From Candidatus Bathyarchaeia archaeon (GTDB taxonomy: Bacteria; Patescibacteriota; Microgenomatia; PFEM01; JAFGMK01), in assembly GCA_035529595.1 (NCBI GenBank), contig DATKWK010000017.1:314961-378960 (forward strand): a stretch of 64,000 nt of DNA, in the 5' to 3' direction. Under the pieces are notes generated by a model. It was not told the DNA's origin. It saw only the letters and a program-made list of their open reading frames with translations, and searched no databases. Numbering within the stretch: the first letter of the stretch is position 1; the number at the start of each line of letters is the position of its first letter. Shown here one piece after another: positions 1,027 to 62,712 of the stretch. Position numbers and translations under genes: made by a program.

Positions 1027-1423
1027 ATTTAAGGAAGTTTATTTGAAATCTATCGTTGGTAACCGTTGGCGCTGAGTTGTCGGCAAAACTGAAATTTACT
1101 CCCCAACCAGGCTGGGCCGGTAAAAAGTCAACCTCTAAACCGACACCGTAAACTTCCGGAAGCGTATATTCTGTCGTAAAAAGCGTAACTTGATACTTAT
1201 CTCTATTACCACTCTTGCACCCCAAGCCATTGCACCAGGATGCTTGATAAAAATTACCGACCTCAGAATAATCTTGGTAATTTTTCCAGGAAGATTTATT
1301 CCAGTTTCTTATGTATTGATCTAAAGTTTGTATCCTTTCTTTATCCTCTTTAGACTGAAAGACGAGGTTATTCCAGCCGCTAAATAGTTGGGTTTTTTGA
1401 TTGGTTTTCTGCCGCAGGTTCAC
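956..1423 (-). CDS. hypothetical protein (possibly the N-terminal part of a frameshifted gene)
   Basis: 155-aa ORF. Overlaps the next ORF by 71 nt in another frame, across an A/T homopolymer run near 990-1010. Confidence 0.35.
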   Translation of the reverse strand: MNLRQKTNQKTQLFSGWNNLVFQSKEDKERIQTLDQYIRNWNKSSWKNYQDYSEVGNFYQASWCNGLGCKSGNRDKYQVTLFTTEYTLPEVYGVGLEVDFLPAQPGWGVNFSFADNSAPTVTNDRFQINFLKFDGSEGGEKEKSLRWFWRFLQSL

Positions 1424-1533
1424 GGCTTGGGTCTTGGATACTAAAAAAATAGACTAGTAAGAAAAAGTGTGTTAGTATTTCCATACTATGGGACAGGTCG
1501 AGAGTGGGATAGATAGGGGCCCTGATTTTAGTA
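1411..1533. repeat. left copy of a ~123-bp inverted repeat (promoter plus 5' end of the NUDIX gene)
   Basis: About 85% identical to the reverse complement of 62588-62712, with a 72-nt core near 95%. Contains TAGACT-17-TAGTAT and the ATG of the 1488 gene. Confidence 0.8.
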
Positions 1534-2144
1534 AAGAAGTCTTAACTCCTATCGGGGCAGCCGGTATTCTGGTTGTGAGGCAGGGGCCTGGTGAAACAAG
1601 ATTTCTCTTAGGACAAAGATTAGGTCCATTGGAACATTTGCGCTATAGTCCTCCGGGAGGAAGATTCGAACCAGAGGAAGCAGAAGATCCCAGAAAATGT
1701 GCCGTTAGGGAACTGGTGGATGAAACAGGAATTGACGCTTCTCCTGAAGAACTAATTCAAGTTTACGAAGGTAGGCAGGTTTTTACGGAGAGTCGAGCTG
1801 TTTTTTTATATTTTGGTTATATTCTTATCTGGCAGGATAGAATGGGGGAACCGCAAAACAGAGAGCCGGATATACATAGAGATTGGCAATGGTTAAGCAG
1901 ACGTCAAATACAGGAATTAAGGGAGGCAGATCTAGCCGCTGCCGCGGTGGAGCTCTTAAATGCTTATGATAAATTTGAAATTAATCAATTGAGCAAGGCA
2001 GCTTTACCGGAAAGACTGCCTCTGAGGCATGACGTTATTGTTCCAAGATTGTTTACTGGAACAGATGATACAAGTCGTAATGATCTAGGTCTTTCAACTA
2101 CAATGAAAGATTTGGAAGAAAGAATTTCTCGCCGTCGTCCGTAA
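1488..2144 (+). CDS. NUDIX hydrolase
   Basis: Nudix-box-like GGRFEPEEAEDPRKCAVRELVDETGI. The promoter sits only ~9 nt upstream of the ATG, so the mRNA is probably leaderless. Confidence 0.55.
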   Translation: MGQVESGIDRGPDFSKEVLTPIGAAGILVVRQGPGETRFLLGQRLGPLEHLRYSPPGGRFEPEEAEDPRKCAVRELVDETGIDASPEELIQVYEGRQVFTESRAVFLYFGYILIWQDRMGEPQNREPDIHRDWQWLSRRQIQELREADLAAAAVELLNAYDKFEINQLSKAALPERLPLRHDVIVPRLFTGTDDTSRNDLGLSTTMKDLEERISRRRP

Positions 2145-2285
2145 AAGGTGCAAACTGACGTCTATTTCTATTATTGAGAGTATATTTAATCGCTTAGGAT
2201 CAGATTTATTTTGCAAACCTTGTTATACTAAGATTAGTTAATTGAATAGAAATATTGTGTCTCAACAAAAGGAGGTGCAAATATT

Positions 2286-2528
2286 ATGCCGCGCAAGAAG
2301 AAAGAAGTTTTTAAAATTAACGGTGACGAATTGCTAAAAAAGGTTAGACAACTAATAAGAGAAGGCAATGTCAGAAGAATTTCCATCAAAAACAAAGAAG
2401 ACGAGGTTATCGCCGAGTTTCCCCTGACTTTTGGGGTAATTGGCGCCGTTGTCGCCCCGGTTTTGGCTGCGATCGGTGCCATTGCCGCCTTGGTAGGCGA
2501 ATGTACGATGTCCGTTGAAAGAGACTGA
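2286..2528 (+). CDS. DUF4342 family protein
   Basis: MPRKKKEVFKINGDELLKKVRQLIREGNVRRISIKN... followed by a Gly/Ala-rich C-terminal helix, typical of DUF4342. RBS aaggagg at 2269. Confidence 0.6.
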   Translation: MPRKKKEVFKINGDELLKKVRQLIREGNVRRISIKNKEDEVIAEFPLTFGVIGAVVAPVLAAIGAIAALVGECTMSVERD

Positions 2529-2622
2529 TAGTATCCCGAAAGAGTTTAAATAATATTTCATTGGATGCTGCTGAAGGAGGTGAGGAAAAACGGAAAATAC
2601 CAGTCAACAATTATGGCAGTTC

Positions 2623-2850
2623 TTGAATAATCCGCAATTTGTTATCCCGCTTATTGTTTGGGCTGTTTTTTGGGAAGGTTTCGCTCTCTGGAAAGCAGCC
2701 ACAAAACGCCAGTTGGTTTGGTTTATTATTTTATTGATTACCAATTCACTGGGACTACTGGAAATTACTTACGTCTTTTTCTTAAACCGTTGGGATATTG
2801 ATAACGGAAAACTGCTGGTTCTTTTGGAAAAGAAATTTAAGAAAAAATAA
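2623..2850 (+). CDS. small two-helix membrane protein, hypothetical
   Basis: 75 aa with two TM helices and a WKAATKRQ loop. Confidence 0.4.
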   Translation: MNNPQFVIPLIVWAVFWEGFALWKAATKRQLVWFIILLITNSLGLLEITYVFFLNRWDIDNGKLLVLLEKKFKKK

Positions 2851-2861
2851 GATTAATCTGT

Positions 2862-3599
2862 TTATCGCTTTATTTCAAGTTTTCTGCTGCCTTCGCGGAA
2901 GCTTAAACCGGACATATCATCTTTATTTTCTCTGAGAAACTTGCTTACGTTTTCAGGGTCTTTTTGAGACATTTCCCGCAAGGTCCATCCGATTGCTTTC
3001 CGGATAAAAAACTTTGCTCGCTTGTTTTGCAGTTTGTTTTTGTATTTTTTGTCTATCCAATCTTCATTGAATTGAGATTTAGCTAGCCTAAAAAATAAGT
3101 TTCTGCTCCCCTTATTGATCCCTTCCCGGAATAATAATAACTGTGCCAAAAGAGCCGATCTTCTGATCCAAAAATCATCGTCTTTTATCCATTCTTCCAA
3201 AATTTTGTAGGCGCTTTTGTCTTTTGCTAAAATTTCCGGCATTACGGGAATGATAAAGCCATCCAGAAGGGCCCAGCCTTTGCATTCTCTGGCCCATTTT
3301 TCTATCCAGGTTAAATCTGATTTATTCATTTTCTGTTTATGAAGCTCCACGATCTCCAAGGCGAAGCTTTTTTCTTCAAAGGAATCTTGGTCCCAGAACT
3401 TTTGGGCTAATTCTAAGGCTGTTTTCTTGGAAAGATTCTTGAGTTTACTTCGGTATTTCTTTAAATGTGCTCTTCTTTTCCCTGTGGGGATGCCGTAATG
3501 AACCAGATCCGAATATAAATATTTTTTCGCCTTTTCTGCTCGTAGAGGATCTTGATTCTGCTTAAGAAAAATCCGATATCTTTTTAGAATGTTGGACAT
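2862..3599 (-). CDS. DNA alkylation repair protein, AlkD/AlkC-like HEAT-repeat family
   Basis: 245 aa with helical-repeat composition and motifs WIRRSALLAQL and IRKAIGWTLREMS typical of PF08713. Confidence 0.65.
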   Translation of the reverse strand: MSNILKRYRIFLKQNQDPLRAEKAKKYLYSDLVHYGIPTGKRRAHLKKYRSKLKNLSKKTALELAQKFWDQDSFEEKSFALEIVELHKQKMNKSDLTWIEKWARECKGWALLDGFIIPVMPEILAKDKSAYKILEEWIKDDDFWIRRSALLAQLLLFREGINKGSRNLFFRLAKSQFNEDWIDKKYKNKLQNKRAKFFIRKAIGWTLREMSQKDPENVSKFLRENKDDMSGLSFREGSRKLEIKR

Positions 3600-3786
3600 T
3601 AATCTTTAAGCTGATTTTGGTAATTATTGTTATTATTATAAGCAAACAGACTTTTCTTTAGTAGATGAGGACAAAAGACGCGTGGTGTCCATCCCCGGGG
3701 TGAATAAATTTGTCAAAGAGTGTGAGTAAAACTACGCAGAATCGATAATTTTTTACCGGAAGGAGCATTTTTGATAAAATAAATTC

Positions 3787-4314
3787 ATGTTTAACAATCA
3801 GGCCATACAACCTAAATTTCTCTATCACGCTTCTCAAAATAGAAATATAAAAATTCTAAAGCCTAGGGCTAAAAGCATTAGGAGTTCGGATGAAGGTCCG
3901 GTCGTTTTTGCATCACCCGATAAAGCTTATGCCTCAATGTTTTTGGTTCCCAGTGATGACTGTTGGACTAGTAAAGGACAATTTGATGGGTGGTACTACC
4001 AAGCCATCTCTGAAGAGGAACGATACAGGAAGTTGGATAAAGGCGGAGCTATCTATACTTTTAAATCAAATACTTTTAAGTCAGACCCGACAAGAGGCAT
4101 GAGAGAAAAAGAGTGGATAAGTAAAGAACCGGTTAAACCAGTTAAAAAGGAAATATATGAATCCGGTCTTGATGCAATGATGCAATTAGGAGTAAAGGTA
4201 GTTTTTATCAGTCCGGCAGTTTTCTCCAGGTTTAGACAAATGCTTAGAAGAGGATTAATAAAAGAAGCCTTCAAACTGATTTTTTCTCCCGATTTGACTT
4301 CGAATTTACTGTAA
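3787..4314 (+). CDS. hypothetical protein with H-Y-E ADP-ribosyltransferase-like motifs (tentative)
   Basis: N-terminal PKFLYHAS resembles the (L/Y)YHGT NAD-binding motif of Tpt1/KptA and DT-like ARTs. Later GWYYQAISEEERY supplies YY and acidic residues. Recalled from memory, weak. Confidence 0.3.
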   Translation: MFNNQAIQPKFLYHASQNRNIKILKPRAKSIRSSDEGPVVFASPDKAYASMFLVPSDDCWTSKGQFDGWYYQAISEEERYRKLDKGGAIYTFKSNTFKSDPTRGMREKEWISKEPVKPVKKEIYESGLDAMMQLGVKVVFISPAVFSRFRQMLRRGLIKEAFKLIFSPDLTSNLL

Positions 4315-4601
4315 CTAATTTACCGGAATTTTTACCCTTTTGTCATTCTAACTTTGACGGCTATCGGAGAAAGAAGTTAGCGAAGCGTAAAAACATGCGC
4401 TTCGATAATAATCCTAACGTTCCAGAAATATTATAGGTTTACATCTTAAGTTTTTGATTAGGAAATACTGGTTACTTCTTTGGCAATTTATGTTTTTCAA
4501 GCTTATTCGTTTTCTATGTTAAAATAAAAAGTACGAATTTAAAAATACGACAATTACCGACATTACCCGGCTTAATCAATTGATTTTTATTATAGAGAGC
4601 C

Positions 4602-5093
4602 TTGTTAATTCAGATGAAAACTGCTGCTTCCATTTTAAAGGTGATTTATAAAGAGTTGGTAAAAAAACACCAACAGGGGGTGTCTTTTATAATTTTTCTC
4701 TTTTTCTTGATTAGTTTTGTCCTCTCCAGAACTTGGACTTATCTTGCCTTGAGAAATATCGTCCCTGAATCTTTAACCGAAAATATTAACGGTGTCCATA
4801 TTCACCATTTCGCTTATGGAATTCTTCTAACCAGTGTTCTTGGTTATCTGGCCTTAAGTTTACCACATCGATACTTAGAAAAATGGAGAATCGAACTGGG
4901 AATATTGTATGGCATTAGCCTGGGTTTGACTTTTGATGAATTTGGAATGTGGCTGAGGTTGCGGGATGATTACCCGAGTCGTTTAAGCTATGACGCGGTC
5001 ACTATTATCGGCATTATTTTTGTCAATATCGTCTATTTTAGCGGCCTTTGGCGAAAATTGATTAAGAAAATTTATCAATGGTATTTTATCTGA
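4602..5093 (+). CDS. integral membrane protein, hypothetical
   Basis: 163 aa with 4-5 TM helices. TTG at 4602, and ATG at 4614 is the more likely start. Confidence 0.4.
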   Translation: MLIQMKTAASILKVIYKELVKKHQQGVSFIIFLFFLISFVLSRTWTYLALRNIVPESLTENINGVHIHHFAYGILLTSVLGYLALSLPHRYLEKWRIELGILYGISLGLTFDEFGMWLRLRDDYPSRLSYDAVTIIGIIFVNIVYFSGLWRKLIKKIYQWYFI

Positions 5094-5165
5094 TGACTTA
5101 GGCGATAGGAAGAAAGTCTGTAAGGTGACTAAGAACCAACCTTTTTCTATGATAAGATGATTTTA

Positions 5166-5693
5166 ATGAAAGTTGCTGTCGGTTCACTCAATCCGGTTAA
5201 AATTAAAGCTGCCAAAATGGCGTTTATAAAGGTGTTTGGTGATTGTCGAGTTATTGGCGTTTCCGTTTCTTCGGGTGTTTCCGATACTCCGCTAACCATT
5301 GAGGAGGCCATCAGGGGTGCTAAGAATCGGGCAAGAAGGGCAATTAGGAAGACTGAAGCTGATTTTGGAGTTGGTCTTGAGGGTACCTTTGAACCTACCA
5401 GTCTGGGTAATTTTCTCTGCGGTTTTGTGGCTATAGTTGATAACAAAAACAGATGGGGATTTGCTAAGGGCAGCGGTTTTCTTATGCCTGAAAAAATTGT
5501 CAATGAAGTAAAAACGGGTAAAGAATTAGGTTGTATTATGGACAAAATTACCGGGATTAAAAAAATTAAGCAGCATCAAGGCGCTACCGGATATTTCACC
5601 AAAAACTTGATCTCGAGAACTCAAAGTTTTGAACAGACTCTTATATATGCTCTTTCCAGATTCATTAGGTCGGAAATGTACGAATCAGATTAA
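5166..5693 (+). CDS. yjjX: inosine/xanthosine triphosphatase (non-canonical purine NTP phosphatase, DUF84/YjjX family)
   Basis: MKVAVGSLNPVKIKAAKMAF N-terminus and overall DUF84 pattern. Confidence 0.6.
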   Translation: MKVAVGSLNPVKIKAAKMAFIKVFGDCRVIGVSVSSGVSDTPLTIEEAIRGAKNRARRAIRKTEADFGVGLEGTFEPTSLGNFLCGFVAIVDNKNRWGFAKGSGFLMPEKIVNEVKTGKELGCIMDKITGIKKIKQHQGATGYFTKNLISRTQSFEQTLIYALSRFIRSEMYESD

Positions 5694-5717
5694 CTTTTTT
5701 TAAAATAGTGCTGGTAG

Positions 5718-6236: not shown

Positions 6237-6279
6237 ACAGTAATTTACTATACTAAATTGTTTTATTAGGTATTAGTGT

Positions 6280-6504
6280 ATGATTAAACCGGTGAAAAAA
6301 ACTTCAAATATTGCTTTGTGTGTCGTTTTTGTTACTGTAGCGGCTTGGGGGATATTAAGATTCATCTTCGGCGGTCCTGAAGATACTTGGCTTTGCCAAA
6401 ACGGTCAATGGATAAAACACGGTAATCCGGCTAAACCGCCTCCGGACACCGGTTGCGGCGAAGCTTCTTCTCAGAAAGCCGCTGAGGAGTCTAAATCCTG
6501 CTGA
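6280..6504 (+). CDS. GGPED-motif small signal-anchored secreted protein (paralog 2 of 3)
   Basis: TM helix then GGPEDTWLCQNGQWIKHGNPAKPPPDTGCGE. Confidence 0.5.
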   Translation: MIKPVKKTSNIALCVVFVTVAAWGILRFIFGGPEDTWLCQNGQWIKHGNPAKPPPDTGCGEASSQKAAEESKSC

Positions 6505-6572: not shown

Positions 6573-6597
6573 TAAATTGCTATAATATGCTCGCAAT

Positions 6598-14426: not shown

Positions 14427-15176
14427 ATGATGATTACTATTTCTACCATCCATGACCCGCAAGGTATATTTCTGCCTTTAATTGGGAAGGTAAAACAGGA
14501 TTTAGAGGTTAATTTTTGTGGTACTGTAGTTGCCTATACAGCGGAAACTTCAATTACGGTTATTAAGACTTTAGAAAAGTTTAAATTAAACCCAATTTTA
14601 GGCGGTCTTTGGGGAGAAGCCAGAAAAAAAGCTTTATCTGAGGCTTTGAAATCAACTAGTGATTTTATCTTTGTTTGTGATTTTGACAAAATCCTGCATT
14701 GGCTGCTGACCGCCAAGAGTGAATTAAAAACACTTTTAAAAGTGAATCCCGAAGCTGATTATCTGATTTTGGGAAGAAGTGGCAGAACGATGGCCACTTA
14801 TCCCTTATCTTGGGTAAAAACCGAATCAATTACCAGTCACCTTATCAGTAAGATTCTTGGTTTTCCGGTTGATGCTTTGACTGCTGCTGCCATTTTAAAT
14901 CGTCGAAGTGGAGAAAAAATCGCCAGAAGTTCATGTGAAGCAAGTTGGGGTTCTTGTATCGAATGGCCGTTGATTGTTCATGCAGCAGAGCTTGATATTT
15001 CTTATCAGGAAGCTAAAGGTCTGACTTGGGAAGATCCGGATCGTTTCCGTCAAGAGATAAAAAATTGTGCTAGTCTAAACAAGTGGCAGCAGGAAAAATA
15101 CGACTCGTTTAGTGAATGGGAAAGAAGAATATCTATATTAGAGCAACAGTGGCAAGTGGTCAATAGATTTTCCTAA
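14427..15176 (+). CDS. hypothetical protein
   Basis: 249-aa ORF in coding-like context. No family recognised. Confidence 0.35.
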   Translation: MMITISTIHDPQGIFLPLIGKVKQDLEVNFCGTVVAYTAETSITVIKTLEKFKLNPILGGLWGEARKKALSEALKSTSDFIFVCDFDKILHWLLTAKSELKTLLKVNPEADYLILGRSGRTMATYPLSWVKTESITSHLISKILGFPVDALTAAAILNRRSGEKIARSSCEASWGSCIEWPLIVHAAELDISYQEAKGLTWEDPDRFRQEIKNCASLNKWQQEKYDSFSEWERRISILEQQWQVVNRFS

Positions 15177-27790: not shown

Positions 27791-28534
27791 ATGATAAAAT
27801 TCTCTTTAATGAAAAAATCACTAATTGGCGCCTCGATTATTTTTCTTGTTGCTGTTACTATTTTGGGATTGATACGCTTTGTGATCGGCGGACCGGAAGA
27901 TGATTGGCTTTGTGTTGACGGACAATGGGTAAAACACGGAAACCCACGCCATCTGGTGCCAAGAATCGGCTGTGGCGAAGCAGAGCCAGAGGAGCTGGCT
28001 AAGATTCCGCCCGCAGATGATGAACAACTAATCGGTGGGGATCAGGATGAGCATGGCTGTTTGATTGCTGCCGGTTATAGTTGGTGCGAGGTAAAACAAA
28101 AATGTTTACGCGAGTGGGAGGAGCCCTGTGAGCTGGAAGAAGTTTTTAATTTTTTCACCGCTCTTAAAGATAACGTTTTCATCAACTTTTCCGGTATCGG
28201 GATAATCGAGTTTAAATGGAATATTAAAGGGGAAAAAGTCGGCAAAGAAACAAAAATTAAGACTCTTAATTTGTCCGGGAAAGCGATTAGCGCTAGCGAA
28301 GTTTTGGAGGAAAAGATAAACGAAATTTGTGATTATTTTGAGAAAGAGGGTTTTGCGGTTAGCGTTTATAATATTGCTGCTGGAACCGTAACTGGTACCA
28401 TCGGTTATCAAAAAGATAATCTGGTTTGTTTGATTAGCAATGTCATGAGCGGTTTTGACTTTAGCGACCCCCAGGCTATTCCGACACCAAGCGGTAATGT
28501 TGATATTGAAGTCAGCTGCGGTCTCCTCGAGTAG
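27791..28534 (+). CDS. GGPED-motif secreted protein, long form (paralog 3 of 3) with extra Cys-rich and C-terminal domains
   Basis: TM helix, then GGPEDDWLCVDGQWVKHGNPRHLVPRIGCGE, then GGDQDEHGCLIAAGYSWCEVKQKCLREWEEPCE (DUF333-like Cys pattern), then a ~140-aa domain. Confidence 0.5.
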   Translation: MIKFSLMKKSLIGASIIFLVAVTILGLIRFVIGGPEDDWLCVDGQWVKHGNPRHLVPRIGCGEAEPEELAKIPPADDEQLIGGDQDEHGCLIAAGYSWCEVKQKCLREWEEPCELEEVFNFFTALKDNVFINFSGIGIIEFKWNIKGEKVGKETKIKTLNLSGKAISASEVLEEKINEICDYFEKEGFAVSVYNIAAGTVTGTIGYQKDNLVCLISNVMSGFDFSDPQAIPTPSGNVDIEVSCGLLE

Positions 28535-49011: not shown

Positions 49012-49299
49012 ATGGAAAACAAGAAAACGGAAAGCAAAAAACAAGCTTCACTTCTGAATTTTAAAAAAGCCCGAAGCCATATCGGTAAGATTATCAAGAT
49101 GATTGAAAAAGACGCTTACTGTGTTGATATTATGCAGCAAAATTTGGCGGTTATCGGTTTATTGAGATCCGCTCATCAGAAACTGATGGAAAATCATTTA
49201 AATACCTGCTTTATCAAAGCCCTGGATTCAAGAAATACGCAAAAAAAGGAAAAAATGGTTCAGGAGATATTAAAAGTAGCCAGCTTATTTAACCGGTAA
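49012..49299 (+). CDS. csoR: CsoR/RcnR-family metal-sensing transcriptional repressor
   Basis: ARSHIGKIIKMIEKDAYCVDIMQQ...AHQKLMENHLNTC carries the C-H-C metal ligands in DUF156 spacing. Confidence 0.7.
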   Translation: MENKKTESKKQASLLNFKKARSHIGKIIKMIEKDAYCVDIMQQNLAVIGLLRSAHQKLMENHLNTCFIKALDSRNTQKKEKMVQEILKVASLFNR

Positions 49300-49305
49300 A
49301 TAATA

Positions 49306-50691
49306 GTGAAACCTAAAAAACCATTATCTTTAAAAGAGCAAACCTTTTTGGTTAAGAATCTGCATTGTTCTTCTTGTGAGTTGTTAATAGAAAAAAGACT
49401 CCTAAACCAAGAAAATGTGATTCGCGTTAAAGCTTCAGTAAAAGACGGCTTAGTAAAGATTAACTACCAAGGTAACGGACTTAAAATTCAAGATTTAAAT
49501 CGGCTTTTCAAAAACGAGAATTATCTTTTCTCGTATCCATCAATTGGCAGCCAAGTTAGTAAGCCTCCGAGACTGAAAGATGCTTTATCGGCGATAATGA
49601 CCGCTCTTTTGATTATCATCGGTTTTGTGCTGATTAATCAATCAGGTTTGTTGGCTTCAGTGGAAATTAAAAAGACCTCATCTTTACCGGTTTTTTTTCT
49701 TTTTGGGCTTCTGGCCGGAGTTTCAAGTTGCGCTGCTTTGGTTGGTGGTCTTGTCTTATCCATGAGCAGGCAATGGTCTTGGGCTTATTCAGGAAAGGAG
49801 TCAGTTTTAACTCGACTCGAACCTCACCTGCTTTTTAACTCCGGGCGATTAGTTTCATATGGATTATTGGGGGCACTTCTGGGCAGTATCGGGAGCATCT
49901 TTAAGCCTTCACCTTTTTTTTCCTCGATTTTAGTCATTGGAACCAGTCTGTTAATGATTATATTAGCTCTCCAGATGTTGGGGATAAGAACCTTTCGACG
50001 AATTCAGATCGCTTTACCCCGGTCCGTCACCGGCTTTATCACTAACGAGGGGAATTTTAAAGCCCGTTATCTACCCTTTGTAATGGGTGCTTTAACTTTT
50101 TTTCTACCCTGTGGTTTTACCCTGACCGCACAGGGCTTAGCAACTATAAGCGGCAGCCCGATGCAAGGGGGATTGATTATGTTTCTGTTTGCCTTGGGTA
50201 CCTTGCCTTCACTTCTGCTAATAAGCCTTTCCGGTATTGCTTTTGTACAAAAACCTTCCCGGTCTGGTCTCTATCTTAAGATAGCCGGAGTGGTGGTCCT
50301 TTTTTTTGCTTTCTTTAATCTGAATTCTCAGTTGAATACGTTAGGCTTACCTTCCCTGAGTGATTTTAGGACAAAAAAGAGTAATGCTTCGCAATCAATA
50401 GAGCAGAACATACAGGTCATTGAAATGGCAGCGTCTGCTTATGGTTATGATCCCAGTTATTTTAAAGTTAAAGTTGGTATTCCCGTGAGATGGGAGATTA
50501 CTGACAAAGGAACCAGTGGTTGTACCAGTGCGGTGATCGCCAAAAACCTGTTTGACGGGCAGATAAATCTGATTCATGGCCAGACTAGCGTTAAAGAGTT
50601 TATCCCCGAAAAACCGGGACGTTATAAGTTCAATTGCTGGATGGGAATGGTATCCGGAATAATTGAAATTGAAGGGTGGGAGCTGGAATGA
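49306..50691 (+). CDS. HMA-domain / polytopic permease / cupredoxin-like fusion protein (copper homeostasis, putative)
   Basis: N-terminal HMA CxxC (LHCSSCE), about 8 TM helices with SSCA motif (TauE/CcdA-like), and a C-terminal beta domain ending in GRYKFNCWMGMVSGIIEI. Confidence 0.45.
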   Translation: MKPKKPLSLKEQTFLVKNLHCSSCELLIEKRLLNQENVIRVKASVKDGLVKINYQGNGLKIQDLNRLFKNENYLFSYPSIGSQVSKPPRLKDALSAIMTALLIIIGFVLINQSGLLASVEIKKTSSLPVFFLFGLLAGVSSCAALVGGLVLSMSRQWSWAYSGKESVLTRLEPHLLFNSGRLVSYGLLGALLGSIGSIFKPSPFFSSILVIGTSLLMIILALQMLGIRTFRRIQIALPRSVTGFITNEGNFKARYLPFVMGALTFFLPCGFTLTAQGLATISGSPMQGGLIMFLFALGTLPSLLLISLSGIAFVQKPSRSGLYLKIAGVVVLFFAFFNLNSQLNTLGLPSLSDFRTKKSNASQSIEQNIQVIEMAASAYGYDPSYFKVKVGIPVRWEITDKGTSGCTSAVIAKNLFDGQINLIHGQTSVKEFIPEKPGRYKFNCWMGMVSGIIEIEGWELE

Positions 50692-51770
50692 AAAACAGAA
50701 AAAGGAAGATCGTTGTTGGCATGTCCGGAGGAGTCGATTCTTCGATGGCTCTAGTTTTGTTAAAACAGCAGGGTTGGCAGCCGGTAGGCGTTTCTCTAAA
50801 GTTGCCGGTCTGGCAGGAAGCGCCGGGTTTATCGGTTGAAAATATTTACAGCTCCAACCGGTCTTTGCAGATTGCTGCCAGGATTTGTCGAAACGTAAAC
50901 GTTCCCCATCACATAATCGATGTCCGGTCTGAGTTTAAAAAGACGGTCATTGGTTATTTTATTTCTGAACTTAAAAATAACAAAACTCCTAATCCCTGTG
51001 TCATTTGTAATCGCCATTTGAAGTTTAAGAAACTGCTTGAATTTGCTGAAAAAGAGAAAGCAGACTTTATTGCTACTGGCCATTACGCTCGGATAAGAAA
51101 AAACCAGCAAACCGGTAAATATGAACTGCTGAAGGCAAAAGATAAAACTAAGGACCAAACATATGCTCTCTGCTTTTTACCTCAGGAATGGTTGGGTAAA
51201 ATTGTTTTCCCCCTCGGAAATTATGCTAAAAAAGAGGTTTATCAGATAGCTAAATCCTCGGGGTTTGAATTTTTCCTGAAACGAAAACAAAGTCAGGATT
51301 TTTGTTTCGCGACCGGGTTGTCTTTGTTGTCTTTCTTGAAAAAAGAAATCGGAGAAAAAAGCGGTGACATAATAGATAATGAAGGAAATGTTTTAGGTCA
51401 ACATTCGGGTTTGCATTTTTATACCATCGGACAAAGGAGACGATTAGGTCTTTCGGGTGGTCCTTACTTTGTCAAAGGTATTGATTCGGAAAAGAATATC
51501 TTGATTGTGACTAAAAACGAAAAAGAGGTAACGCAACGAGAACTTAAACTTTACCCATTTCATTTTATCAGCGGACGTTCGCTTCCAAAAAAGCAACCTG
51601 TAATGGCAAAAGTTCGCTACCGCCAAGTATTGAGTAAGGCGCTTCTCTATCCGCCTGAAAAGAACAAACTGCGTTTGGTCTTTGGCCGACCACAAAGAGC
51701 AGTTACTTCTGGTCAGTTTGCCGTCTTTTATCAGAGTGAAGTTTGCCTGGGAGGAGGAGTGATTTTATGA
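50688..51770 (+). CDS. mnmA: tRNA-specific 2-thiouridylase
   Basis: PP-loop [12 protein letters not shown] and the [10 protein letters not shown] Cys region. ATG overlaps the upstream TGA, and its own stop overlaps the copA ATG. Confidence 0.85.
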
Positions 51771-54058
51771 AGAAGAAAATAGATTTGGACATTTCCGGTA
51801 TGCATTGCAGCGGTTGTGTCGTTAGTATTGAGACTCTTCTGAAGAAACAAGAGGGTATCTATTCAGCCAGCGTCAATTTTGCTTCCGAAAGGGCAATAAT
51901 CGAGTTTGATCCGCGAAGAATCACTCTAAAAAGGATCAAAGAAATGGTTAAGAAGATAGGTTACGAAGCCGAAGAATCGGGAGAAGATCATCAAGAAGCG
52001 GAAAGTAAAAAAATCAAGAAATTAAGAGATACTTTTCTTGGTTCATTACTCCTTGGTTTACCTCTTTTTTACCTAAGCATGGGAGATATGCTTAGCCTGC
52101 CAAGGCTACCGATCTCTACCAGCACGAATACCCTGATTCAATTTTTGTTGACAGCAGGAATTATGATTCAAAACGTACGCCTTTATATATCCGGACTTAA
52201 GAAACTAAGGCAAAAGAATCCTGACATGGATTCTTTGGTGTCGATGGGAACATTAGCTGCCTTTGTTTACAGTTTAATTGCTTCAATCAGCGTCTTTTTC
52301 GGACCGGCAAAGATAAAGGAAACTCATCTTTATTTTGAAAGCGCTGGTTTTATCTTAATCTTTATTTCTTTGGGAAAATATTTGGAGGCTATTACCAAGG
52401 AGAAAACAAGTGAAGCGGTCAAAAAACTTATCGGACTAAGACCTAAAGAAGCAACAGTAATCAGGGGAGGTGAACAAATGAAAATTCCGATATCAGCAGT
52501 ATTAACCGGCGATTTGCTTCTGGTAAAACCCGGCGAGAAGATACCGGTTGACGGTGTTGTTGTCAGCGGTTATTCGGCAGTAGATGAGAAAGCCTTTACC
52601 GGTGAGAGTCTTCCGGTTGAGAAGAAAACCGGTGATGAAGTTATCGGCGCCACAATAAATATGACTGGCATCTTAAAAATCAAAGCCCGGCATATAGGTA
52701 AAAAAATGATGCTTTCTCAAATCATTAAGATAGTCGAAGAAGCGATCGGCTCTAAAGCGCCGATCCAGCTTTTGGCAGATAAAATTTCGTACTACTTCGT
52801 TCCGGTGGTAATGGTAATCGCTTTTTTGGCCTTTTTTTTCTGGTTAATCGTCGGTCAATCATTGGAGTTTGCTTTAACGGTGTTTATTGCGGTTTTGATT
52901 ATTGCCTGTCCTTGTTCTTTAGGATTGGCGATGCCAACAGCAATTATGATGGGCGCGGGATTAGCTGCCCAACGGGGGATTTTAATCAGGAAACCCCAGG
53001 CCTTGGAAATGGCGGAAAAGGTTAATTTGGTGGTGTTTGACAAAACCGGTACCCTAACTTTGGGCAAACCAACCGTCACTGATGTTCTGTCCGTGGCCAA
53101 ACTGAAACTTAAAAGTTCATCAATAAATTCGAAACTGTCTGAAGATCAACTTGATGTTTTGCAGGCCACTGCCTCACTGGAAAAAAACTCGCAGCACCCA
53201 TTGACTCACGCAATTTTAAAAAAAGCCAACCAAGAAAATTTGAAGTTATTTAAGGTTGAAAGTTTCACCACAATTCCCGGCCAAGGAATAACAGGAAACC
53301 TGGAGTCAAAAACTCCAGGTGTTAAACTCAAACTGCTTTTGGGAAATAGAAAATTAATGGCAGAAAATCAGGTCCTGATCAAACCAGCCGGAAATAGAGC
53401 AATCGGTCAATTAGAAAATCAAGGAAAGACAGTCATGATTTTAGCAGTAAATCGACGTCTGGCCGGATTAATCGCCGTGGCTGATATTGTGAAGGATCAG
53501 GCTCAGGAGACCCTGGATCTACTTAGAAGATTAGGTAAGAAAATAGTAATTATTACCGGTGATAACCGCCGTGTTGCTGATGTAATCGCACATAAGTTAG
53601 GAGTTGATCAAGTCTTATCAGAGGTTTTACCTCAAGAAAAGTCAAAAGAGATTAAGAAATTACAGCAACAAGGCCATACCGTAGCTATGGTCGGTGACGG
53701 TATCAATGATGCTCCGGCTTTAGCTCAGGCTGATTTGGGAATAGCCTTGGGGTCCGGTACCGACGTGGCTATCGAAACAGGTGATATTATCCTGGTGAAA
53801 GACGATTTACTTGATGTAGTTAAAGCTATTGATTTGAGCCGGTACACCTTAAAGAAAATTAAGCAGAATCTTTTTTGGGCTTTTTCCTACAATATTATTG
53901 GTATTCCGATCGCTGCCGGTATTTTGTATCCGACTACCGGTTGGCTCTTGGAGCCGATGATTGCGGCGGCAGCAATGGCTTTTTCTTCAGTCAGCGTTGT
54001 AGTCAATTCGTTACTGATGAAAAGGTATCGATTATCTAAGCCTGGTACACTTCCTTAA
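51767..54058 (+). CDS. copA: copper-translocating P1B-type ATPase
   Basis: HMA GMHCSGC, CPC motif, [20 protein letters not shown] ggaggagg before ATG 51767. Confidence 0.9.
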
Positions 54059-58282: not shown

Positions 58283-58350
58283 TCTCGCTTCGCCAATATA
58301 AGTCAAGTAAAACTTAGCTGCCGATAAACTAACTGATTTCAAGTTTCTAT

Positions 58351-58782
58351 CTATTGTGCCTTGGGAGTTTTTTTGGTTTTCCTGATCGAGATAACCAGAT
58401 AGGCTGTTGTCCCGATAACCAGAAGAAGGATATTAGCGATAATAAATAAGTTGCCCAGGGGAAAGAAAGAAAAAGCACTTCCGGAGAAACCTCCATAGAC
58501 ACCTGGAGCTTTTTCACGGCTACTGTCTAGGTTCAGTATTTGTACACCAAACGGATTCAGTATTCCTCTGCCGCTCAGAGGAGCGAATTGATCCGTTGGT
58601 GATAGATTAAACCAGCCTTCTTCCGGAGCCGGTTGGGATACAACCGGACTTTCCTGATAACGGCGTTCGCTTTCAGACTGGCGTCTAAGTTCTTCCATTT
58701 GCTGCTGGTTAATCAAGGCAATCAAAGCCGAATACGGAGTGACGATATGGGCTTGTTCCGCAAAAGCTTGGGCATTATCCAA
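58351..58782 (-). CDS. membrane-anchored hypothetical protein
   Basis: 143 aa with a C-terminal TM helix. Confidence 0.3.
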   Translation of the reverse strand: MDNAQAFAEQAHIVTPYSALIALINQQQMEELRRQSESERRYQESPVVSQPAPEEGWFNLSPTDQFAPLSGRGILNPFGVQILNLDSSREKAPGVYGGFSGSAFSFFPLGNLFIIANILLLVIGTTAYLVISIRKTKKTPKAQ

Positions 58783-59188
58783 AAAGACAAGATTTTGGGT
58801 TTGGGAATCTTGGTATTTTCTAAACTGATTCAGAAGGTATGCTTGTCTGGCAAGATAGGAGAAGAGATTACTGTCGTCTATCGTCAGTACAGGCCACTCA
58901 GGCGTGGAAGCGCTAATTGCTTCTATAGATTGTTCTTGAGAATAATACTCCAGTAGGCTCCGGTAGTGAGTTCGGTAACATCCGTGTTTTCACGCAGCTA
59001 AGTCGTTACCAGGTAATGACTGATTGCTTGAGGTAGACTATCAACTATTTGGCCGCCATTTTTTATCGACTGGGAAGTAAACTCTTGGCGGTAAGGTGGA
59101 ATTAAGTTGCTGTTGTGGAGCAAGCTAAGGTTTAATTTAACCTAAAATCTCCCAGTTTCCTGGGGTGTGAACCTAAACCACCCTTAGG

Positions 59189-59461
59189 GTGGAACTTTTA
59201 AAGTTTGGCAAGATTTTAAACAGCAGACCTTCGGGTCATGAAGCTGCATTGAGAGTCAAGCAGATAATCAATGGTCAAGGAAAAGAAGTAAAAACTATTG
59301 TGCTTGATATGGAAGATATAGATGTGTTGACACCATCTTTTGCTGACGAGTTTATAAGAGGTGTAAAAGATTTATATCCTAAAGTTAAAGTGGAATTAAA
59401 GGGTTATCAAAGCAATCCCGTGCTTCAGCAGACACTTCAAACCATCGGTCTGTTAGATTAA
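59189..59461 (+). CDS. STAS-like domain protein (DUF4325-like)
   Basis: LNSRPSGHEAALRVKQII...VLDMEDIDVLTPSFADEFI. Confidence 0.4.
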   Translation: MELLKFGKILNSRPSGHEAALRVKQIINGQGKEVKTIVLDMEDIDVLTPSFADEFIRGVKDLYPKVKVELKGYQSNPVLQQTLQTIGLLD

Positions 59462-59519
59462 AAAAGCCATTTTGAAGGAATTTGCACTTTTTTCCTGAAG
59501 ATTGTTGATGAATATTTTT

Positions 59520-59582
59520 ATATCCTCTAAACTAAAATCAAACTCTAACTTATGGTTGCAGAATAAGTCCTTTAGGGGGAGC
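59520..59582 (+). repeat. ~63-nt intergenic repeat ending in GAATAAGTCCTTTAGGGGGAGC (copy A)
   Basis: About 80% identical to 60579-60640, with a 22-nt exact core. Confidence 0.6.
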
Positions 59583-59642
59583 TAAAAAATCGCCAATCAG
59601 GCAGTTTTTTGGTAGAATAGAGAAAGATATTAAATAAACAAA

Positions 59643-59909
59643 ATGCCCTACATAGCAATATCTACTGTCGTATTAGCCATTATTACAGTAGTCGTAATTT
59701 ATATAGTAAAAAGTAGGATGAGATATATGGGGCAAGAGACGAAAAAAGAAAATAAACTAATGTTCTGGATCGGAATAGTAATTGTAGCAATAGCAGTGAT
59801 ATTTTTCTTAACAGCGAAAGAAGAATTTGAGAATAAGATGTGGGCTGTTCCTATTTGGATAATGGGGATAGGATTAATAGCGGGTTCACGATATAGATTT
59901 CTGAAGTAA
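59643..59909 (+). CDS. small membrane protein, hypothetical
   Basis: 88 aa with three TM helices. Confidence 0.35.
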   Translation: MPYIAISTVVLAIITVVVIYIVKSRMRYMGQETKKENKLMFWIGIVIVAIAVIFFLTAKEEFENKMWAVPIWIMGIGLIAGSRYRFLK

Positions 59910-59939
59910 TAAGTTTTCTTTAAGACTATTCACTAAAAA

Positions 59940-59970
59940 GGTCCGAACATCGTCCGTCAGGGGGAGCTTG
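59940..59970 (+). repeat. CGTCCGTCAGGGGGAGCT motif (copy B)
   Basis: Shares about 26/31 nt with 62496-62524, and the AGGGGGAGC core with copies A and C. Confidence 0.45.
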
Positions 59971-59996
59971 TAGCCTCAAAATGATATACTTCAGGT

Positions 59997-60527
59997 ATGA
60001 AGCTGTTTCGTTTTAGCCCAATAAAAGATAAAACTCAGTTATTTAAAGCAATTGAATATATTCATTTTGAATCATTTAGACTGTGCAAACAAAATCTTGG
60101 TTATTATTTACCAGTTGCTGGAAATGTAGGTGTCTTTTGCCATTACGAGGATGAATTTGAGCGATTGATCAAGATTAGAAAAGAGCTAACAGATCTATAT
60201 GATAATTGGAACCAGAAATATTTTCGTCTTCATAAACCAATCGTTATTCCTGCTAAAAATGACATACCAGAGACAACTTATACCTATCTTTATATCCGCA
60301 AACCTGACCCTAGCCATCATCATGTCGGTGATGTAGATTTTTATCTAGAACCCAACAAATACAGAGAATTAAAAGGATCTTTATTATCCGGAAAGATTAT
60401 GAAGGGAGTAAGAATATTTGAAAGACCCGATCTTGACTTGATTAGACTTTATGATTCAGATAGCGATATTAGTGCCTTTGTCGGTAAAAAGAAAATAACA
60501 GAGGATGTAAGAGAAGGACAAATTTAG
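59997..60527 (+). CDS. hypothetical protein
   Basis: 176-aa ORF. No family recognised. Confidence 0.35.
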   Translation: MKLFRFSPIKDKTQLFKAIEYIHFESFRLCKQNLGYYLPVAGNVGVFCHYEDEFERLIKIRKELTDLYDNWNQKYFRLHKPIVIPAKNDIPETTYTYLYIRKPDPSHHHVGDVDFYLEPNKYRELKGSLLSGKIMKGVRIFERPDLDLIRLYDSDSDISAFVGKKKITEDVREGQI

Positions 60528-60578
60528 GAAGCAAGGTTTAATTGGGGTTCTAATTTAAGGTTATTAATAACTGTCTGA

Positions 60579-60640
60579 ATATCCTTAATATTAAATCCAA
60601 ATTCTATCTTAGGTTGATGAATAAGTCCTTTAGGGGGAGC
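60579..60640 (+). repeat. ~62-nt intergenic repeat ending in GAATAAGTCCTTTAGGGGGAGC (copy C)
   Basis: Followed by a GGGGGCC-gttt-GGCCCC hairpin and a TTGACT-N17-TATAAT promoter for the 60784 gene. Confidence 0.6.
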
Positions 60641-60783
60641 AAAATTCTGGGGGCCGTTTGGCCCCAAAATTCTGCTCTGTGTGGTTTTGGAGAGAACCTC
60701 TGGTTCGCCGTGTCCGGGAAAAAAAGTTGCACTTGACTTTAGAATGTAGGGAACTATAATCGCGGTTTTGCTATAATTAAAAT

Positions 60784-62454
60784 ATGAAAACTAAACTAAT
60801 CTTAGTTTTTGTTTTAGTTCTTTCTCTTTTTCTCCGAGTTTATAAACTTGACAGCTTGGAATTATTTGGGGATGAGATCGATGTCGGTTATCATACATAC
60901 TCACTTCTAAAAACTGGCCGAGATTATCGAGGCCATCTTTTGCCTTTTTACTTCCAGTCTTTAGCAGAGTGGAGGGCGCCACTCTTGATGTATGTCTCAG
61001 TTCCTTTTGTTGCCATTTTTGGACTTAATGAATGGGGGGTTAGACTGCCAACTGTCTTTTTTGGAGTATTAAGTATTTTTTTACTTTTTAAGCTAGTGAA
61101 GATTTTGTCTAAAAGTAATTCTTTAGCTTTGTGGTCGGCTTTTGTTTTGGCAATTACCCCGTGGCACCTTCATTATTCTCGAGCTGCATTTGAAGTAACC
61201 CTATTGTTAGCTTTAATTTTGGGAGGAACGATTGTTTTTTTGAAAGGGAAATGGTCTTGGTCGGCCTTATTGTTTAGTTTAAGTTTTTACACTTATAATA
61301 CGGCTAATCTTTTTGTTCCCTTGTTCCTGCTCACCTTATTATTGTTGGCTTGGAAGTCAAAGAAGGCCGAATTTTCAAAGAAGAAACTGATTCGGGCAGG
61401 CTTGGTTTTTCTGGTAGCTTCTTTGCCTATTGTCTTGACTATTGCCAGAGGGCAGGGATCGGCCAGGTTTAGACAAATTAGTATTTTTAGTGATCAAAAA
61501 ACAGTTGGAAAGATTGTTTACAAACGGACGACGGGGATCAGTCAAGGTCAAGAAAGATTTTTTCATAATAAATTACTCGCTTGGGGAAACAATTTCTTGA
61601 GCAACTATTCTGGATTTGTCTCCCCTCAGTTTCTCTTTTTTACTGGTGATCCTAACCCTCGTCACAACCAGCCTGGGTTTGGCCAGTTTTTACTCGTGTT
61701 AGCGCCTTTTTTTGTTCTCGGATTAGAAGAGTGGGGAAGGTTTAGAGATAGGTTTTTTAAAAAAATTATTTTGTTTTGGCTTGTTTTGGGTCCTATCGCT
61801 ACTGCTCTAACTGAGGGAGGAGGTTTCCATGCAACTCGTCTTTTTATAGTTCTCCCCCCGTTGGTAATTCTAACTGCAATTGGGCTTAATTGGTTTTTTA
61901 CAATACTAAAAGGTCGTCTCAGAGCTGCTTTGTTCGTTTTAATTTTAATTAGTTTGGGGTTAAACATGGTTTTGTGGTTCCATAATTACTTGGTCCATTA
62001 TCCAAAGGAAGCAGCAGACTATTGGAATTATGGTTACAAAGAGGCTTTTACTTGGTTGCAAGGTAACGAACAAGTAGAAAGGATCTTTATAAATAATCAT
62101 CATGAACCAGCTCTAACGCGCTACTTATTTTGGAGTCGTTTGTCTCCCTTAGAATTTCAAGGAAACTTCGTAAATGACAGTTCGGTTGATAATCTTTTAC
62201 CGGACTTTGATGGTTTTCAGCTTGGGAATGTCTACTTTGGTGGAATTGATTCTAGTGATAGGGTCAACTGGTTTAAAAATAACTTAGAAAAAGGAGACGT
62301 CTACTTAGCTATTCGCAATCAAGAGGTTCCTTTTGATCAAGATCGGACAAAAGAAACACCTGGGGGGATAGAAATCAAAAAAGTTGTTTATGACCCCTGG
62401 GGGGAACCGTTAATGTATTGGTTAACAAAAGGAACTGAATGGGTCGGTGACTAA
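60784..62454 (+). CDS. GT-C membrane glycosyltransferase (GT39/ArnT/PMT_2-like)
   Basis: About 12 TM helices. The first loop carries FGDEIDVGYHTYSL (DE motif), plus a large C-terminal periplasmic domain. Confidence 0.65.
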   Translation: MKTKLILVFVLVLSLFLRVYKLDSLELFGDEIDVGYHTYSLLKTGRDYRGHLLPFYFQSLAEWRAPLLMYVSVPFVAIFGLNEWGVRLPTVFFGVLSIFLLFKLVKILSKSNSLALWSAFVLAITPWHLHYSRAAFEVTLLLALILGGTIVFLKGKWSWSALLFSLSFYTYNTANLFVPLFLLTLLLLAWKSKKAEFSKKKLIRAGLVFLVASLPIVLTIARGQGSARFRQISIFSDQKTVGKIVYKRTTGISQGQERFFHNKLLAWGNNFLSNYSGFVSPQFLFFTGDPNPRHNQPGFGQFLLVLAPFFVLGLEEWGRFRDRFFKKIILFWLVLGPIATALTEGGGFHATRLFIVLPPLVILTAIGLNWFFTILKGRLRAALFVLILISLGLNMVLWFHNYLVHYPKEAADYWNYGYKEAFTWLQGNEQVERIFINNHHEPALTRYLFWSRLSPLEFQGNFVNDSSVDNLLPDFDGFQLGNVYFGGIDSSDRVNWFKNNLEKGDVYLAIRNQEVPFDQDRTKETPGGIEIKKVVYDPWGEPLMYWLTKGTEWVGD

Positions 62455-62495
62455 TCAAGGGATATTTTCGGCTTAAGTTTTTAAGCGTTTGAGAG

Positions 62496-62524
62496 TTCGG
62501 ATAGCGTCCCACAGGGGGAGCTAG
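62496..62524 (+). repeat. CGTCCCACAGGGGGAGCT motif (copy D)
   Basis: See copy B. Confidence 0.45.
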
Positions 62525-62587
62525 GCGAGACAGAAATAAGATTGTTTTTCCCGAGGTGCAGGAAGGAAACTACCTTGAAGGTGTTAA

Positions 62588-62712
62588 CGGAAAATCCGGG
62601 CCCCGATTTCTTCCGCTCTCTATCTGTCCCATAGTATGGAAATACTAACATAGTTTCTCTTACTAGTCTATTTTTTTTAGTATCCAAGACCCAAGGCATG
62701 AACCTGCTACAT
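62588..62712. repeat. right copy of the ~123-bp inverted repeat (truncated duplicate of the NUDIX promoter and first ~18 codons)
   Basis: Its reverse complement matches 1411-1533. It would encode MGQIESGRNRGPDFPLTPSR* against MGQVESGIDRGPDFSKEVLTP at the left copy. Confidence 0.8.

Follow-up and report, generated by a model that had tools for sequence, protein, structure and literature searches.

Inverted copies of a NUDIX gene start around a 61-kb block: probably a relic, not a switch

Why should the beginning of one NUDIX hydrolase gene occur twice, in opposite orientations, at the two ends of a 61-kb block of genes? The locus belongs to an uncultivated CPR (Microgenomates-like) bacterium without a close sequenced relative. 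In the initial annotation of the window (the whole stretch of 64,000 nucleotides analysed here), a ~123-bp inverted repeat was described as bracketing the block, and the pair was suggested to be capable of mediating its inversion.

The repeat, its two copies and the shared upstream region

The inverted repeat was recovered, with its ends refined to 1414-1529 on the + strand and 62707-62591 on the - strand. Across this stretch 103 of 117 columns match, giving an identity of 88% instead of the reported 85% or so, and the sole indel is 1 nt in an A-run (blastn E values: ~4e-37 for a search of 180 kb, 4e-29 for the self-comparison). Past a 9-nt in-frame gap, weaker homology runs on to 1557/62573 (TTAACTCCTATCGGGG on the left, TTAACACCT-TCAAGG on the right). 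The innermost ~72 nt (1426-1496) contain 3 mismatches and 1 indel, an identity of ~94% that lies close to the figure of about 95% given earlier. Exact runs common to both copies measure 24, 20 and 27 nt, none being longer. Differences are spread over the upstream 74 nt (5 mismatches and 1 indel) and the coding part (8 mismatches in 42 nt). The first ~18 codons had been described as shared; 14 are shared contiguously, and only 3 more follow beyond a 3-codon deletion. Both junctions were reproduced at 100% identity in independent Logan assemblies, the left in L002 and the right in L004, so the repeat is not a chimera. The two copies also differ at 12% of positions, and the earlier concern that the right copy might be an assembly chimera or a collapsed repeat can be dismissed. 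The existence of the inverted repeat is confirmed.

The left copy (1414..1529, +) comprises 74 nt upstream of the start codon and NUDIX codons 1-14, or codons 1-23 if the weaker extension is included. It opens an intact 218-aa NUDIX hydrolase gene (1488..2144, +; Pfam PF00293, E 2e-13, residues 24-147), in whose product the Nudix box occupies residues 57-82. An N-terminal extension of ~20 aa also occurs in family members of 33-48% identity, in support of a start at the ATG at 1488. The peptide motif at the N-terminus is not conserved across the family. No relative above 48% identity was found in the searched collections. On the other side, a divergent ORF (956..1423, -) has its GTG start, GTGAACCTGC, inside the left repeat copy, and the right copy has a matching ATGAACCTGC start belonging to a 30-codon ORF at 62698-62790 (+). 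What was duplicated is the upstream region together with the 5' codons, as had been proposed. Comparison of the copies shows the apparent edge of the duplicated unit to be three codons into the divergent ORF, an arbitrary position typical of segmental duplication. The 64-kb window contains five NUDIX paralogs, which indicates that the family duplicates readily here. Other short duplicated upstream modules also occur nearby.

The right copy (62591..62707, -), hereafter F5, carries the matching upstream region and 14 codons, and after the 9-nt in-frame deletion it ends with TTAACACCTTCAAGG (62573..62587, -). Its reading frame is an ORF of 20 codons, MGQIESGRNRGPDFPLTPSR, closed by a stop codon (62570..62632, -) and lacking the Nudix box. 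The earlier description of a truncated copy pointing inward is therefore accurate: it is a 20-codon stump on the - strand at 62.6 kb. It sits between two convergent glycosyltransferase genes. A 556-aa PMT_2 glycosyltransferase (60784..62454, +; Pfam PF13231) converges with the stump and is separated from it by a spacer of 118 nt (62455..62572), whereas a 402-aa PMT_2/DUF2142-like glycosyltransferase (62765..63973, -), whose nearest named homolog is from Candidatus Shapirobacteria at 45% identity, lies on the same strand, with the stump starting 57 nt past its stop. With 88% homology over 117 nt, an ORF of 20 codons and an end short of the Nudix box, F5 has the properties of a gene relic.

The stump is inferred to have no present function. 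A different view is that the right copy has been retained as an active promoter or operator co-regulated with the NUDIX gene, in which case it would drive expression of a peptide of 20 aa or else of an antisense RNA that enters the 556-aa glycosyltransferase gene at its 3' end. The hexamer pair TAGACT-N17-TAGTAT is indeed present in both copies where it had been reported (in the left copy at 1450-1478, with 9 nt to the ATG at 1488), and both have a TGn extended -10 and an identical 11-nt palindrome, CCATACTATGG, over the start codon. The upstream 74 nt are 93% conserved, compared with 78-81% for the coding relics, a difference of only marginal significance (p 0.01-0.07). The hexamers, however, match just 8 of 12 consensus positions, which is under the scan threshold, and the sigma-70 scan returned no site in either copy. 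Assigning a promoter to each copy is plausible but is not above chance by consensus scan. No further copies of the repeat motif were found in the 79 kb examined and, as noted, the peptide motif is not conserved. We regard a retained regulatory role as quite improbable. Such a role would be compatible with an origin as a relic, and the better conservation of the upstream 74 nt leaves room for a kept function of this part of the stump.

A third NUDIX fragment beside a phosphotransferase gene

A further NUDIX fragment, F3, was found ~2 kb to the left of the window on the + strand (L001 6514-6624, corresponding to window positions -1999..-1889). It matches codons 19-57 of the live gene (1542..1654, +) at 88 of 113 positions (78%), and the alignment has two gaps of 1 nt each. 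Its score of 60 compares with a maximum of 19 among ~1500 random windows, and the blastn E value is 4.5e-17. Read in the NUDIX frame, F3 contains three stop codons and frameshifts, and it does not reach the Nudix box; it too has the properties of a gene relic.

The two relics complement each other. F5 extends from position -74 to codon 23 and F3 from codon 19 to codon 57, leaving an overlap of ~16 nt, and they lie on opposite strands 64.6 kb apart. The live segment homologous to F3 begins with 16 nt (1542-1557) that are likewise matched by the last bases of the right copy, so that TTAACACCTTCAAGG overlaps the F3 start, TTTACACCTTGGAGG. Within this overlap F5 and F3 have three states in common that differ from the live gene, namely A for T, a 1-nt deletion (CCTT vs CCTAT) and A for G; these, like the junction details, amount to very few bases, and polarising them would take an outgroup. 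No further NUDIX-like sequence was found adjoining either fragment. Since F3 continues where the right copy stops, on the opposite strand, the repeat looks like the scar of a past duplication and rearrangement and not like a working recombination substrate.

The neighbouring phosphotransferase (APH-like) gene reads 20 codons into F3, and its C-terminus lies ~27 aa beyond that of its homologs P0003 and P0004. When the end of this gene (...GTCAGGG) is joined to the reverse complement of the window up to 62572, the product would end in ...EVSG, followed by an immediate stop. This re-joining suggests that the 118-nt spacer next to the stump once adjoined the phosphotransferase 3' end. The unannotated genes near F3 gave no PHROG matches.

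In several ways the fragments resemble the truncated paralogs and pseudogene fragments of other bacteria: they are homologous to an intact neighbour, truncated, interrupted by stops and frameshifts and devoid of the Nudix box, and in one case an unrelated gene is fused by its end to the fragment and reads into it. Here, in contrast, they form a complementary pair on opposite strands, 64.6 kb apart. It could be argued that F5 and F3 are independent relics of different partial duplications or dead paralogs, their complementary extents being coincidental and no inversion having taken place. The five NUDIX genes in 64 kb and the short duplicated modules nearby would fit such a history, as would the native look of the present block orientation. 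Yet for two fragment ends in a gene of 650 nt to lie no more than 16 nt apart would be a coincidence of roughly 5%, and in their overlap F5 and F3 also have two substitutions and a 1-nt deletion in common. We consider independent origins unlikely.

Orientation and content of the 61-kb block

All contigs carrying a junction, 4-6 for each in the JGI and Logan assemblies, have one orientation only. In the block as in the two flanks, GC skew on the + strand is positive and the genes are co-oriented. The block encodes housekeeping functions (MetK, TGT, MnmA-like and others) and is uniform in composition with its flanks. Integrase, resolvase and transposase families were absent from the Pfam assignments of the 79 kb made up of the window and its flanks, which agrees with the earlier statement that no transposase or integrase is present, and no direct repeats flank the inverted repeat. 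Gene order, whose comparison had been recommended as a check, is poorly kept in the nearest relatives: no close relatives were found in the searched collections, and L009-L012 have no flanking genes in common with the window. In L008 (50% amino acid identity) the phosphotransferase gene and a 249-aa gene have the same relative orientation as here.

These results bear on the proposal that homologous recombination between the repeats toggles the orientation of the block. An exchange within the upstream part would keep the NUDIX gene intact either way. In E. coli the length limit for recombination is ~25 bp, about what the longest exact runs attain. For Bacillus subtilis a minimal processing segment of >40 bp is quoted, and recombination falls log-linearly with divergence (PMC4824099); a repeat of 117 nt and 88% identity, with exact runs of 24 and 27 nt at best, falls short of this and of what efficient RecA-dependent exchange needs. 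Were the block inverted, ~60 kb of genes lying mostly on the + strand would run head-on to replication, and the contigs contain one orientation. The suggested inversion is therefore unsupported, the skew of the block also matching that of its flanks, and we deem a flipping block highly unlikely.

Two known kinds of invertible DNA can be compared with the locus. Flip-flop inversions in E. coli, Staphylococcus and others arise by homologous recombination between long inverted repeats such as rRNA operons, IS elements or prophages, which are nearly identical over hundreds to thousands of bases, and the segment is found in both orientations. The present locus resembles them in having inverted repeats around tens of kilobases and in requiring no site-specific recombinase, but its repeats are 117 nt long, 88% identical and without exact runs above 27 nt, and a single orientation is seen. 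Invertons (fimS/FimBE, hin) consist of short repeats around a small segment with a promoter inside and an adjacent dedicated recombinase. A promoter-like sequence is tied to inverted repeats here too; however, it and the repeat are one and the same, the segment measures 61 kb and no recombinase is present.

Apart from there being a block with inverted repeats at its ends, nothing recommends the remaining readings, that is, the ends of a mobile element or island, an assembly artefact, or a structured RNA gene in two copies. The repeats are the 5' end of a gene, not those of an insertion sequence or composite transposon, and the housekeeping content, the uniform composition and skew and the lack of a transposase, an integrase and flanking direct repeats speak against an element or island. 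The agreement of independent assemblies and the 12% divergence of the copies contradict an artefact. For an RNA gene, there was no Rfam match in the window and the two copies give a weak consensus fold of -12.5 kcal/mol that lacks compensatory pairs. All three are extremely improbable.

A probable dead paralog that may have been split

The account that we favour may well be correct, the chances standing about equal on either side: F5 and F3 would be the two halves of one dead NUDIX paralog (NUDIX'). NUDIX' would have been born by a small segmental duplication reaching from 74 nt before the start codon into the coding region, and would have evolved for a while as a coding gene, gaining a frameshift near codon 22. 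Of the changes in the 14 common codons, 5 are synonymous and 3 non-synonymous (pS 0.59, pN 0.09, Fisher p 0.003), and this synonymous bias indicates that the dead copy was at one time evolving as a coding gene. An inversion-type rearrangement would then have split NUDIX' at codons 19-23. Its 5' stump, made up of the upstream region and 21 codons, would have remained on the - strand at 62.6 kb, behind the gene for the 402-aa glycosyltransferase, F3 (codons 19-57) would have ended up on the + strand 64.6 kb away, fused to the phosphotransferase 3' end, and the remainder would have been deleted. We read the split as having needed at least one inversion-type rearrangement. Because the skew and gene orientation of the block are the same as in its flanks and the orientation of the L008 markers is kept, one recent inversion of the block alone is an unlikely cause, which obliges us to assume two steps; most simply, the block would have flipped and later flipped back with its end points slightly shifted, the order of events being deduced. 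Alternatively, a single, very old inversion could have taken place. Neither the arrangement before the rearrangement nor an intact NUDIX' was found in any genome of the searched collections.

Staggered breaks with fill-in offer another route to inverted copies, in which inversion of the 61-kb block itself would have doubled ~144 nt of the NUDIX 5' region; a full paralog would never have existed and F3 would be an unrelated partial duplication. Inverted breakpoint duplications of this kind have been proposed for many Drosophila inversions, with a median duplication of 321 bp and outgroups showing the other orientation (Ranz et al. 2007, PMC1885836). The likeness is considerable: the copies lie at the exact ends of the block, are inverted and consist of non-repetitive gene sequence, and no mobile element is present; the ~16-nt overlap of F5 and F3 even looks like a small version of such a duplication. 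Here, however, no outgroup has the other orientation and there is a third fragment. The route leaves F3, its start at the end of the stump and the common 1-nt deletion unexplained, the synonymous-biased divergence fits a formerly coding paralog somewhat better, and neither the skew nor the L008 orientation gives any sign that the block was inverted. This origin of the copies strikes us as improbable.

A last possibility would make the pair a kept cassette in two inverted copies, between which rare recombinase-independent exchange still flips the 61-kb block, F3 being the trace of earlier rounds of imprecise flipping. The cassette would consist of the well-conserved 74-nt upstream module and a short leader peptide. 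Each flip would turn the NUDIX gene, along with ~60 others, from co-directional to head-on orientation or back. We hold this reading to be very unlikely. The right copy is most likely a relic and not a switch and, if NUDIX' was split as proposed, for which the balance is even, the F5/F3 pair would mark a rearrangement breakpoint in this genome almost to the base.

The inverted repeat and its two copies

Region reading, a repeat finder and local alignment placed the ends of the inverted repeat at 1414-1529 (+) and 62707-62591 (-). In the local alignment 103 of 117 columns match (88%), with a single 1-nt indel within an A-run, and blastn recovered the pair with E ~4e-37 when 180 kb was searched and 4e-29 in a 79-kb self-comparison; the long inverted repeat reported in the initial annotation is thus real. 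The longest stretches of uninterrupted identity between the copies are 24, 20 and 27 nt. Past a 9-nt in-frame gap homology resumes, with TTAACTCCTATCGGGG on the left against TTAACACCT-TCAAGG on the right, and runs to 1557/62573. The window sits in contig Ga0307380_10000013 (385 kb) of JGI metagenome 3300031539, window position 1 being position 314820 of that record. Each junction recurs, with both its flanks 100% identical, in an independent Logan assembly from another run: the left one in L002, the right one in L004. Because these assemblies agree and the two copies differ by 12%, the assembly chimera or collapsed repeat considered previously is excluded.

The left copy comprises 74 nt 5' of the ATG at 1488 and the first codons of a NUDIX hydrolase gene (1488-2144, +), which is intact and encodes 218 aa (Pfam E 2e-13). 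The ATG at 1488 is supported as the start by distant members of the NUDIX family (33-48% identity), whose N-termini are likewise extended by ~20 residues. A full HMMER scan returned no relative above 48% identity, and the MGQxESG..RGPDF motif was absent from the N-termini of the relatives found. In a word-indexed database the protein matched nothing but itself, and a related-locus search with single NUDIX homologs returned generic NUDIX genes of unrelated phyla and nothing else. Equally, two 20-nt blocks of the repeat core had no exact match in viral, metagenome and species-representative genome collections (the source contig not being among them).

The right copy, hereafter F5 (62591-62707, -), lies where two PMT_2-type glycosyltransferase genes converge with 310 nt between them, one encoding 556 aa (60784-62454, +) and the other 402 aa (62765-63973, -). 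Its coding content is MGQIESGRNRGPDFPLTPSR followed by a stop and nothing more, in line with its earlier description as a truncated duplicate of the gene at the left. The 20-codon ORF at 62570-62632 should therefore be annotated as a gene stump. The outer edge of the repeat lies three codons into a divergent ORF (GTGAACCTGC at 1423, ATGAACCTGC at 62698), which looks like an arbitrary boundary of the kind that segmental duplication leaves. On the minus strand at the left end, two ORFs in different frames, 956-1423 and 601-1026, share 70 nt at the A-rich run GAGAAAAAGAAAAAAG; neither has a Pfam or PHROG match, and the JGI gene call at 601-1423 covers the downstream part only. This stretch looks like one ~270-aa gene with a frameshift near 995-1010, be it a pseudogene, a slippage site or an assembly indel.

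Both copies carry the hexamer pair TAGACT-N17-TAGTAT 9 nt 5' of the ATG, together with a common TGn extended -10. The promoter proposed in the initial annotation is plausible on the strength of this shared arrangement, although the hexamers match the sigma-70 consensus at 8 of 12 positions and a sigma-70 scan reported no promoter in the left or right copy. The 74 nt 5' of the ATG are 93% conserved between the copies, against 78-81% for the coding relics (p 0.07 with the F5 coding part alone, p 0.01 with a further fragment, F3, included), as would be expected if the promoter was constrained while both genes lived. The same conservation leaves a small chance that the region upstream of the stump is still active, in which case transcription from it could run antisense into the 556-aa gene from its 3' end. 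A structured RNA element was rejected, as the window has no Rfam match and the two-sequence consensus fold is weak, with no compensatory pair or covariation. A regulon was likewise rejected, since no copy of the upstream module beyond these two turned up in a sensitive blastn search of the 79 kb examined. Separately, a three-copy family of direct repeats (67-89 nt, 76-91% identity), each ending in AAGTCCTTTAGGGGGAGC, lies at 59498-59586, 60557-60644 and ~4691-4757 of the flanking sequence L003 (window-equivalent 65494-65560). Its copies each precede a plus-strand gene (an 88-aa ORF, the 556-aa glycosyltransferase gene and a 65-aa gene, respectively), so that this neighbourhood holds a second kind of duplicated upstream or 5'-UTR module.

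A third fragment and a proposed split paralog

Searching the left region against flanking DNA of the same contig with blastn revealed a third NUDIX-like fragment, F3, ~2 kb left of the window (L001 6514-6624, window -1999 to -1889, +). F3 aligns with window 1542-1654, that is, NUDIX codons 19-57, at 88 of 113 positions (78%) with two 1-nt gaps. The alignment scored 60 (blastn E 4.5e-17), whereas ~1500 random genomic windows reached 19 at most. The fragment holds three stop codons when the NUDIX frame is applied and is also contained in the independent assembly L002. It is fused to the 3' end of a gene for a 360-aa phosphotransferase (APH-like), the frame of which continues 20 codons into F3; two homologs of this protein stop ~27 residues sooner. 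The C-terminal tail of ~20 aa should therefore be annotated as read-through into a NUDIX pseudogene fragment.

F3 starts where F5 ends: F5 closes with TTAACACCT-TCAAGG and F3 opens with TTTACACCT-TGGAGG, the live gene reading TTAACTCCTATCGGGG. Across their 16-nt overlap both fragments differ from the live gene in the same way (A for T, a 1-nt deletion and A for G), and they lie on opposite strands with 64.6 kb between them. As the three pieces have complementary extents, the simplest account is that a single dead paralog of the live gene, here called NUDIX', would have been split into F5 and F3. Were they instead two independent relics, their ends would have to coincide by chance, for which we estimate roughly 5%.

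The 14 codons common to F5 and the live gene show five synonymous and three non-synonymous differences (pS 0.59, pN 0.09, Fisher p 0.003). This synonymous bias indicates that the dead copy probably evolved as a coding gene for much of its history. NUDIX' would have arisen by duplication, which appears frequent in this family here, since the window holds five NUDIX genes (1488, 5718, 20977, ~36760 and ~46170), and would then have evolved under coding constraint. Because F5 and F3 have the 1-nt deletion in common, a frameshift would seem to have preceded breakage. As the halves lie on opposite strands, the event would have been of the inversion type, breaking the DNA within codons 19-23 and again where the phosphotransferase gene ends. 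Placing the sequence that now adjoins the stump (62572 downward, reverse-complemented) behind the phosphotransferase gene (...GTCAGGG) closes its frame directly (...EVSG-stop). The short overlap of F5 and F3 is like a small-scale version of the duplications that have been described for staggered breaks at inversion breakpoints in Drosophila (PMC1885836). A small G+C-rich hairpin, TATCGGGGCAGCCGGTA, flagged as terminator-like, lies inside the live gene at 1550-1566 (+), coinciding exactly with the position where the dead paralog broke; it may be a fragile site.

Orientation of the block and the proposed inversion

The observations do not fit the idea that the 64.6-kb block was inverted once and recently. 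GC skew is positive on the plus strand throughout the block and both flanks, and the same strand carries most genes in all three (L003 being reversed relative to the window). We checked synteny through homologs of the phosphotransferase (L008) and of the glycosyltransferases (L009-L012). In L008 (50% protein identity), the sole informative relative among the loci compared, one shared gene is informative: the ortholog of the 249-aa gene (window 14427-15176), which is oriented relative to the phosphotransferase gene as it is here. The synteny comparison put forward in the initial annotation gives no sign of a single recent inversion. L009-L012 have no flanking gene in common with the window, and no closer relatives were found in the collections searched. 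A NUDIX gene beside the L008 phosphotransferase gene was considered and rejected, as the following 201-aa gene encodes a membrane protein. Since skew, co-oriented genes and L008 agree, the present orientation looks native. We therefore favour a history in which the block would have flipped and then flipped back with slightly shifted end points, which would have stranded F5 at the opposite end; the alternatives are one inversion of great age or the two independent relics considered above.

A working inversion device is not supported. The gene calls of the examined 79 kb include no integrase, resolvase or transposase family, confirming the earlier observation for the window. The small unannotated minus-strand genes between F3 and the live NUDIX gene gave no PHROG or phage-family match, and the large unannotated ORFs no recombinase-like Pfam match. 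For E. coli the recombination limit is ~25 bp. In Bacillus subtilis the minimal recombination segment is quoted as >40 bp and recombination falls log-linearly with divergence (PMC4824099). With identity runs of at most 27 nt (88% overall), the repeat is below the B. subtilis value and at the E. coli limit. Every contig carrying either junction has one and the same arrangement. The content of the block is ordinary for a chromosome (MetK, TGT, an MnmA-like tRNA-modification gene, a LexA/UmuC-like pair, two-component and efflux systems), and together these results argue against the earlier proposal that the repeats mediate inversion of the 61-kb segment. These chromosomal genes and the uniform composition of the block also led us to reject a genomic island or transposon.

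Genomic neighbourhood and meaning of the probable fossil

Nucleotide house-cleaning enzymes are unusually concentrated in the 64 kb, the five NUDIX genes being accompanied by MazG (56528), HD-domain (HD_3, 57632) and ITPase-like (NTPase_I-T, 5157) genes. Two copper modules, each a CsoR-like repressor and a P-type ATPase, lie in direct orientation at 49012-54058 and at ~1300-3840 of L003 (window-equivalent ~66.4-69 kb); their ATPase genes are ~58% identical in DNA. A 172-nt direct match (6293-6464 against 27810-27981, 63% identity, E 2e-11) joins a 74-aa gene with the 5' part of a 247-aa ORF (27791-28534), and the two are probably paralogs. At NCBI the proteins bear the name 'MAG TPA: Candidatus Bathyarchaeia archaeon'. 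Yet the genes present (PilMNO, pilins, LexA/UmuC-like genes, an OmpR-type two-component system, MacB efflux) are CPR/Patescibacteria-like, and the nearest named homologs are from Candidatus Shapirobacteria. Both indicate a CPR/Patescibacteria bacterium, and the Bathyarchaeia bin label is probably wrong.

The inverted repeat is best read as the 5' end of a live NUDIX gene and the 5' stump of its dead paralog, a fossil whose continuation lies on the other strand outside the window. The feature is ordinary in kind, a gene relic or rearrangement scar in an uncultivated CPR bacterium, and its significance beyond this genome is slight. It shows neatly that gene duplication and rearrangement can leave a long, significant inverted repeat on either side of a large block as a fossil and not a switch. 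From the stump and the continuation it lacks, an old breakpoint would be placed almost to the nucleotide in this uncultivated CPR lineage, where rearrangement history is otherwise invisible because close relatives are unsequenced.
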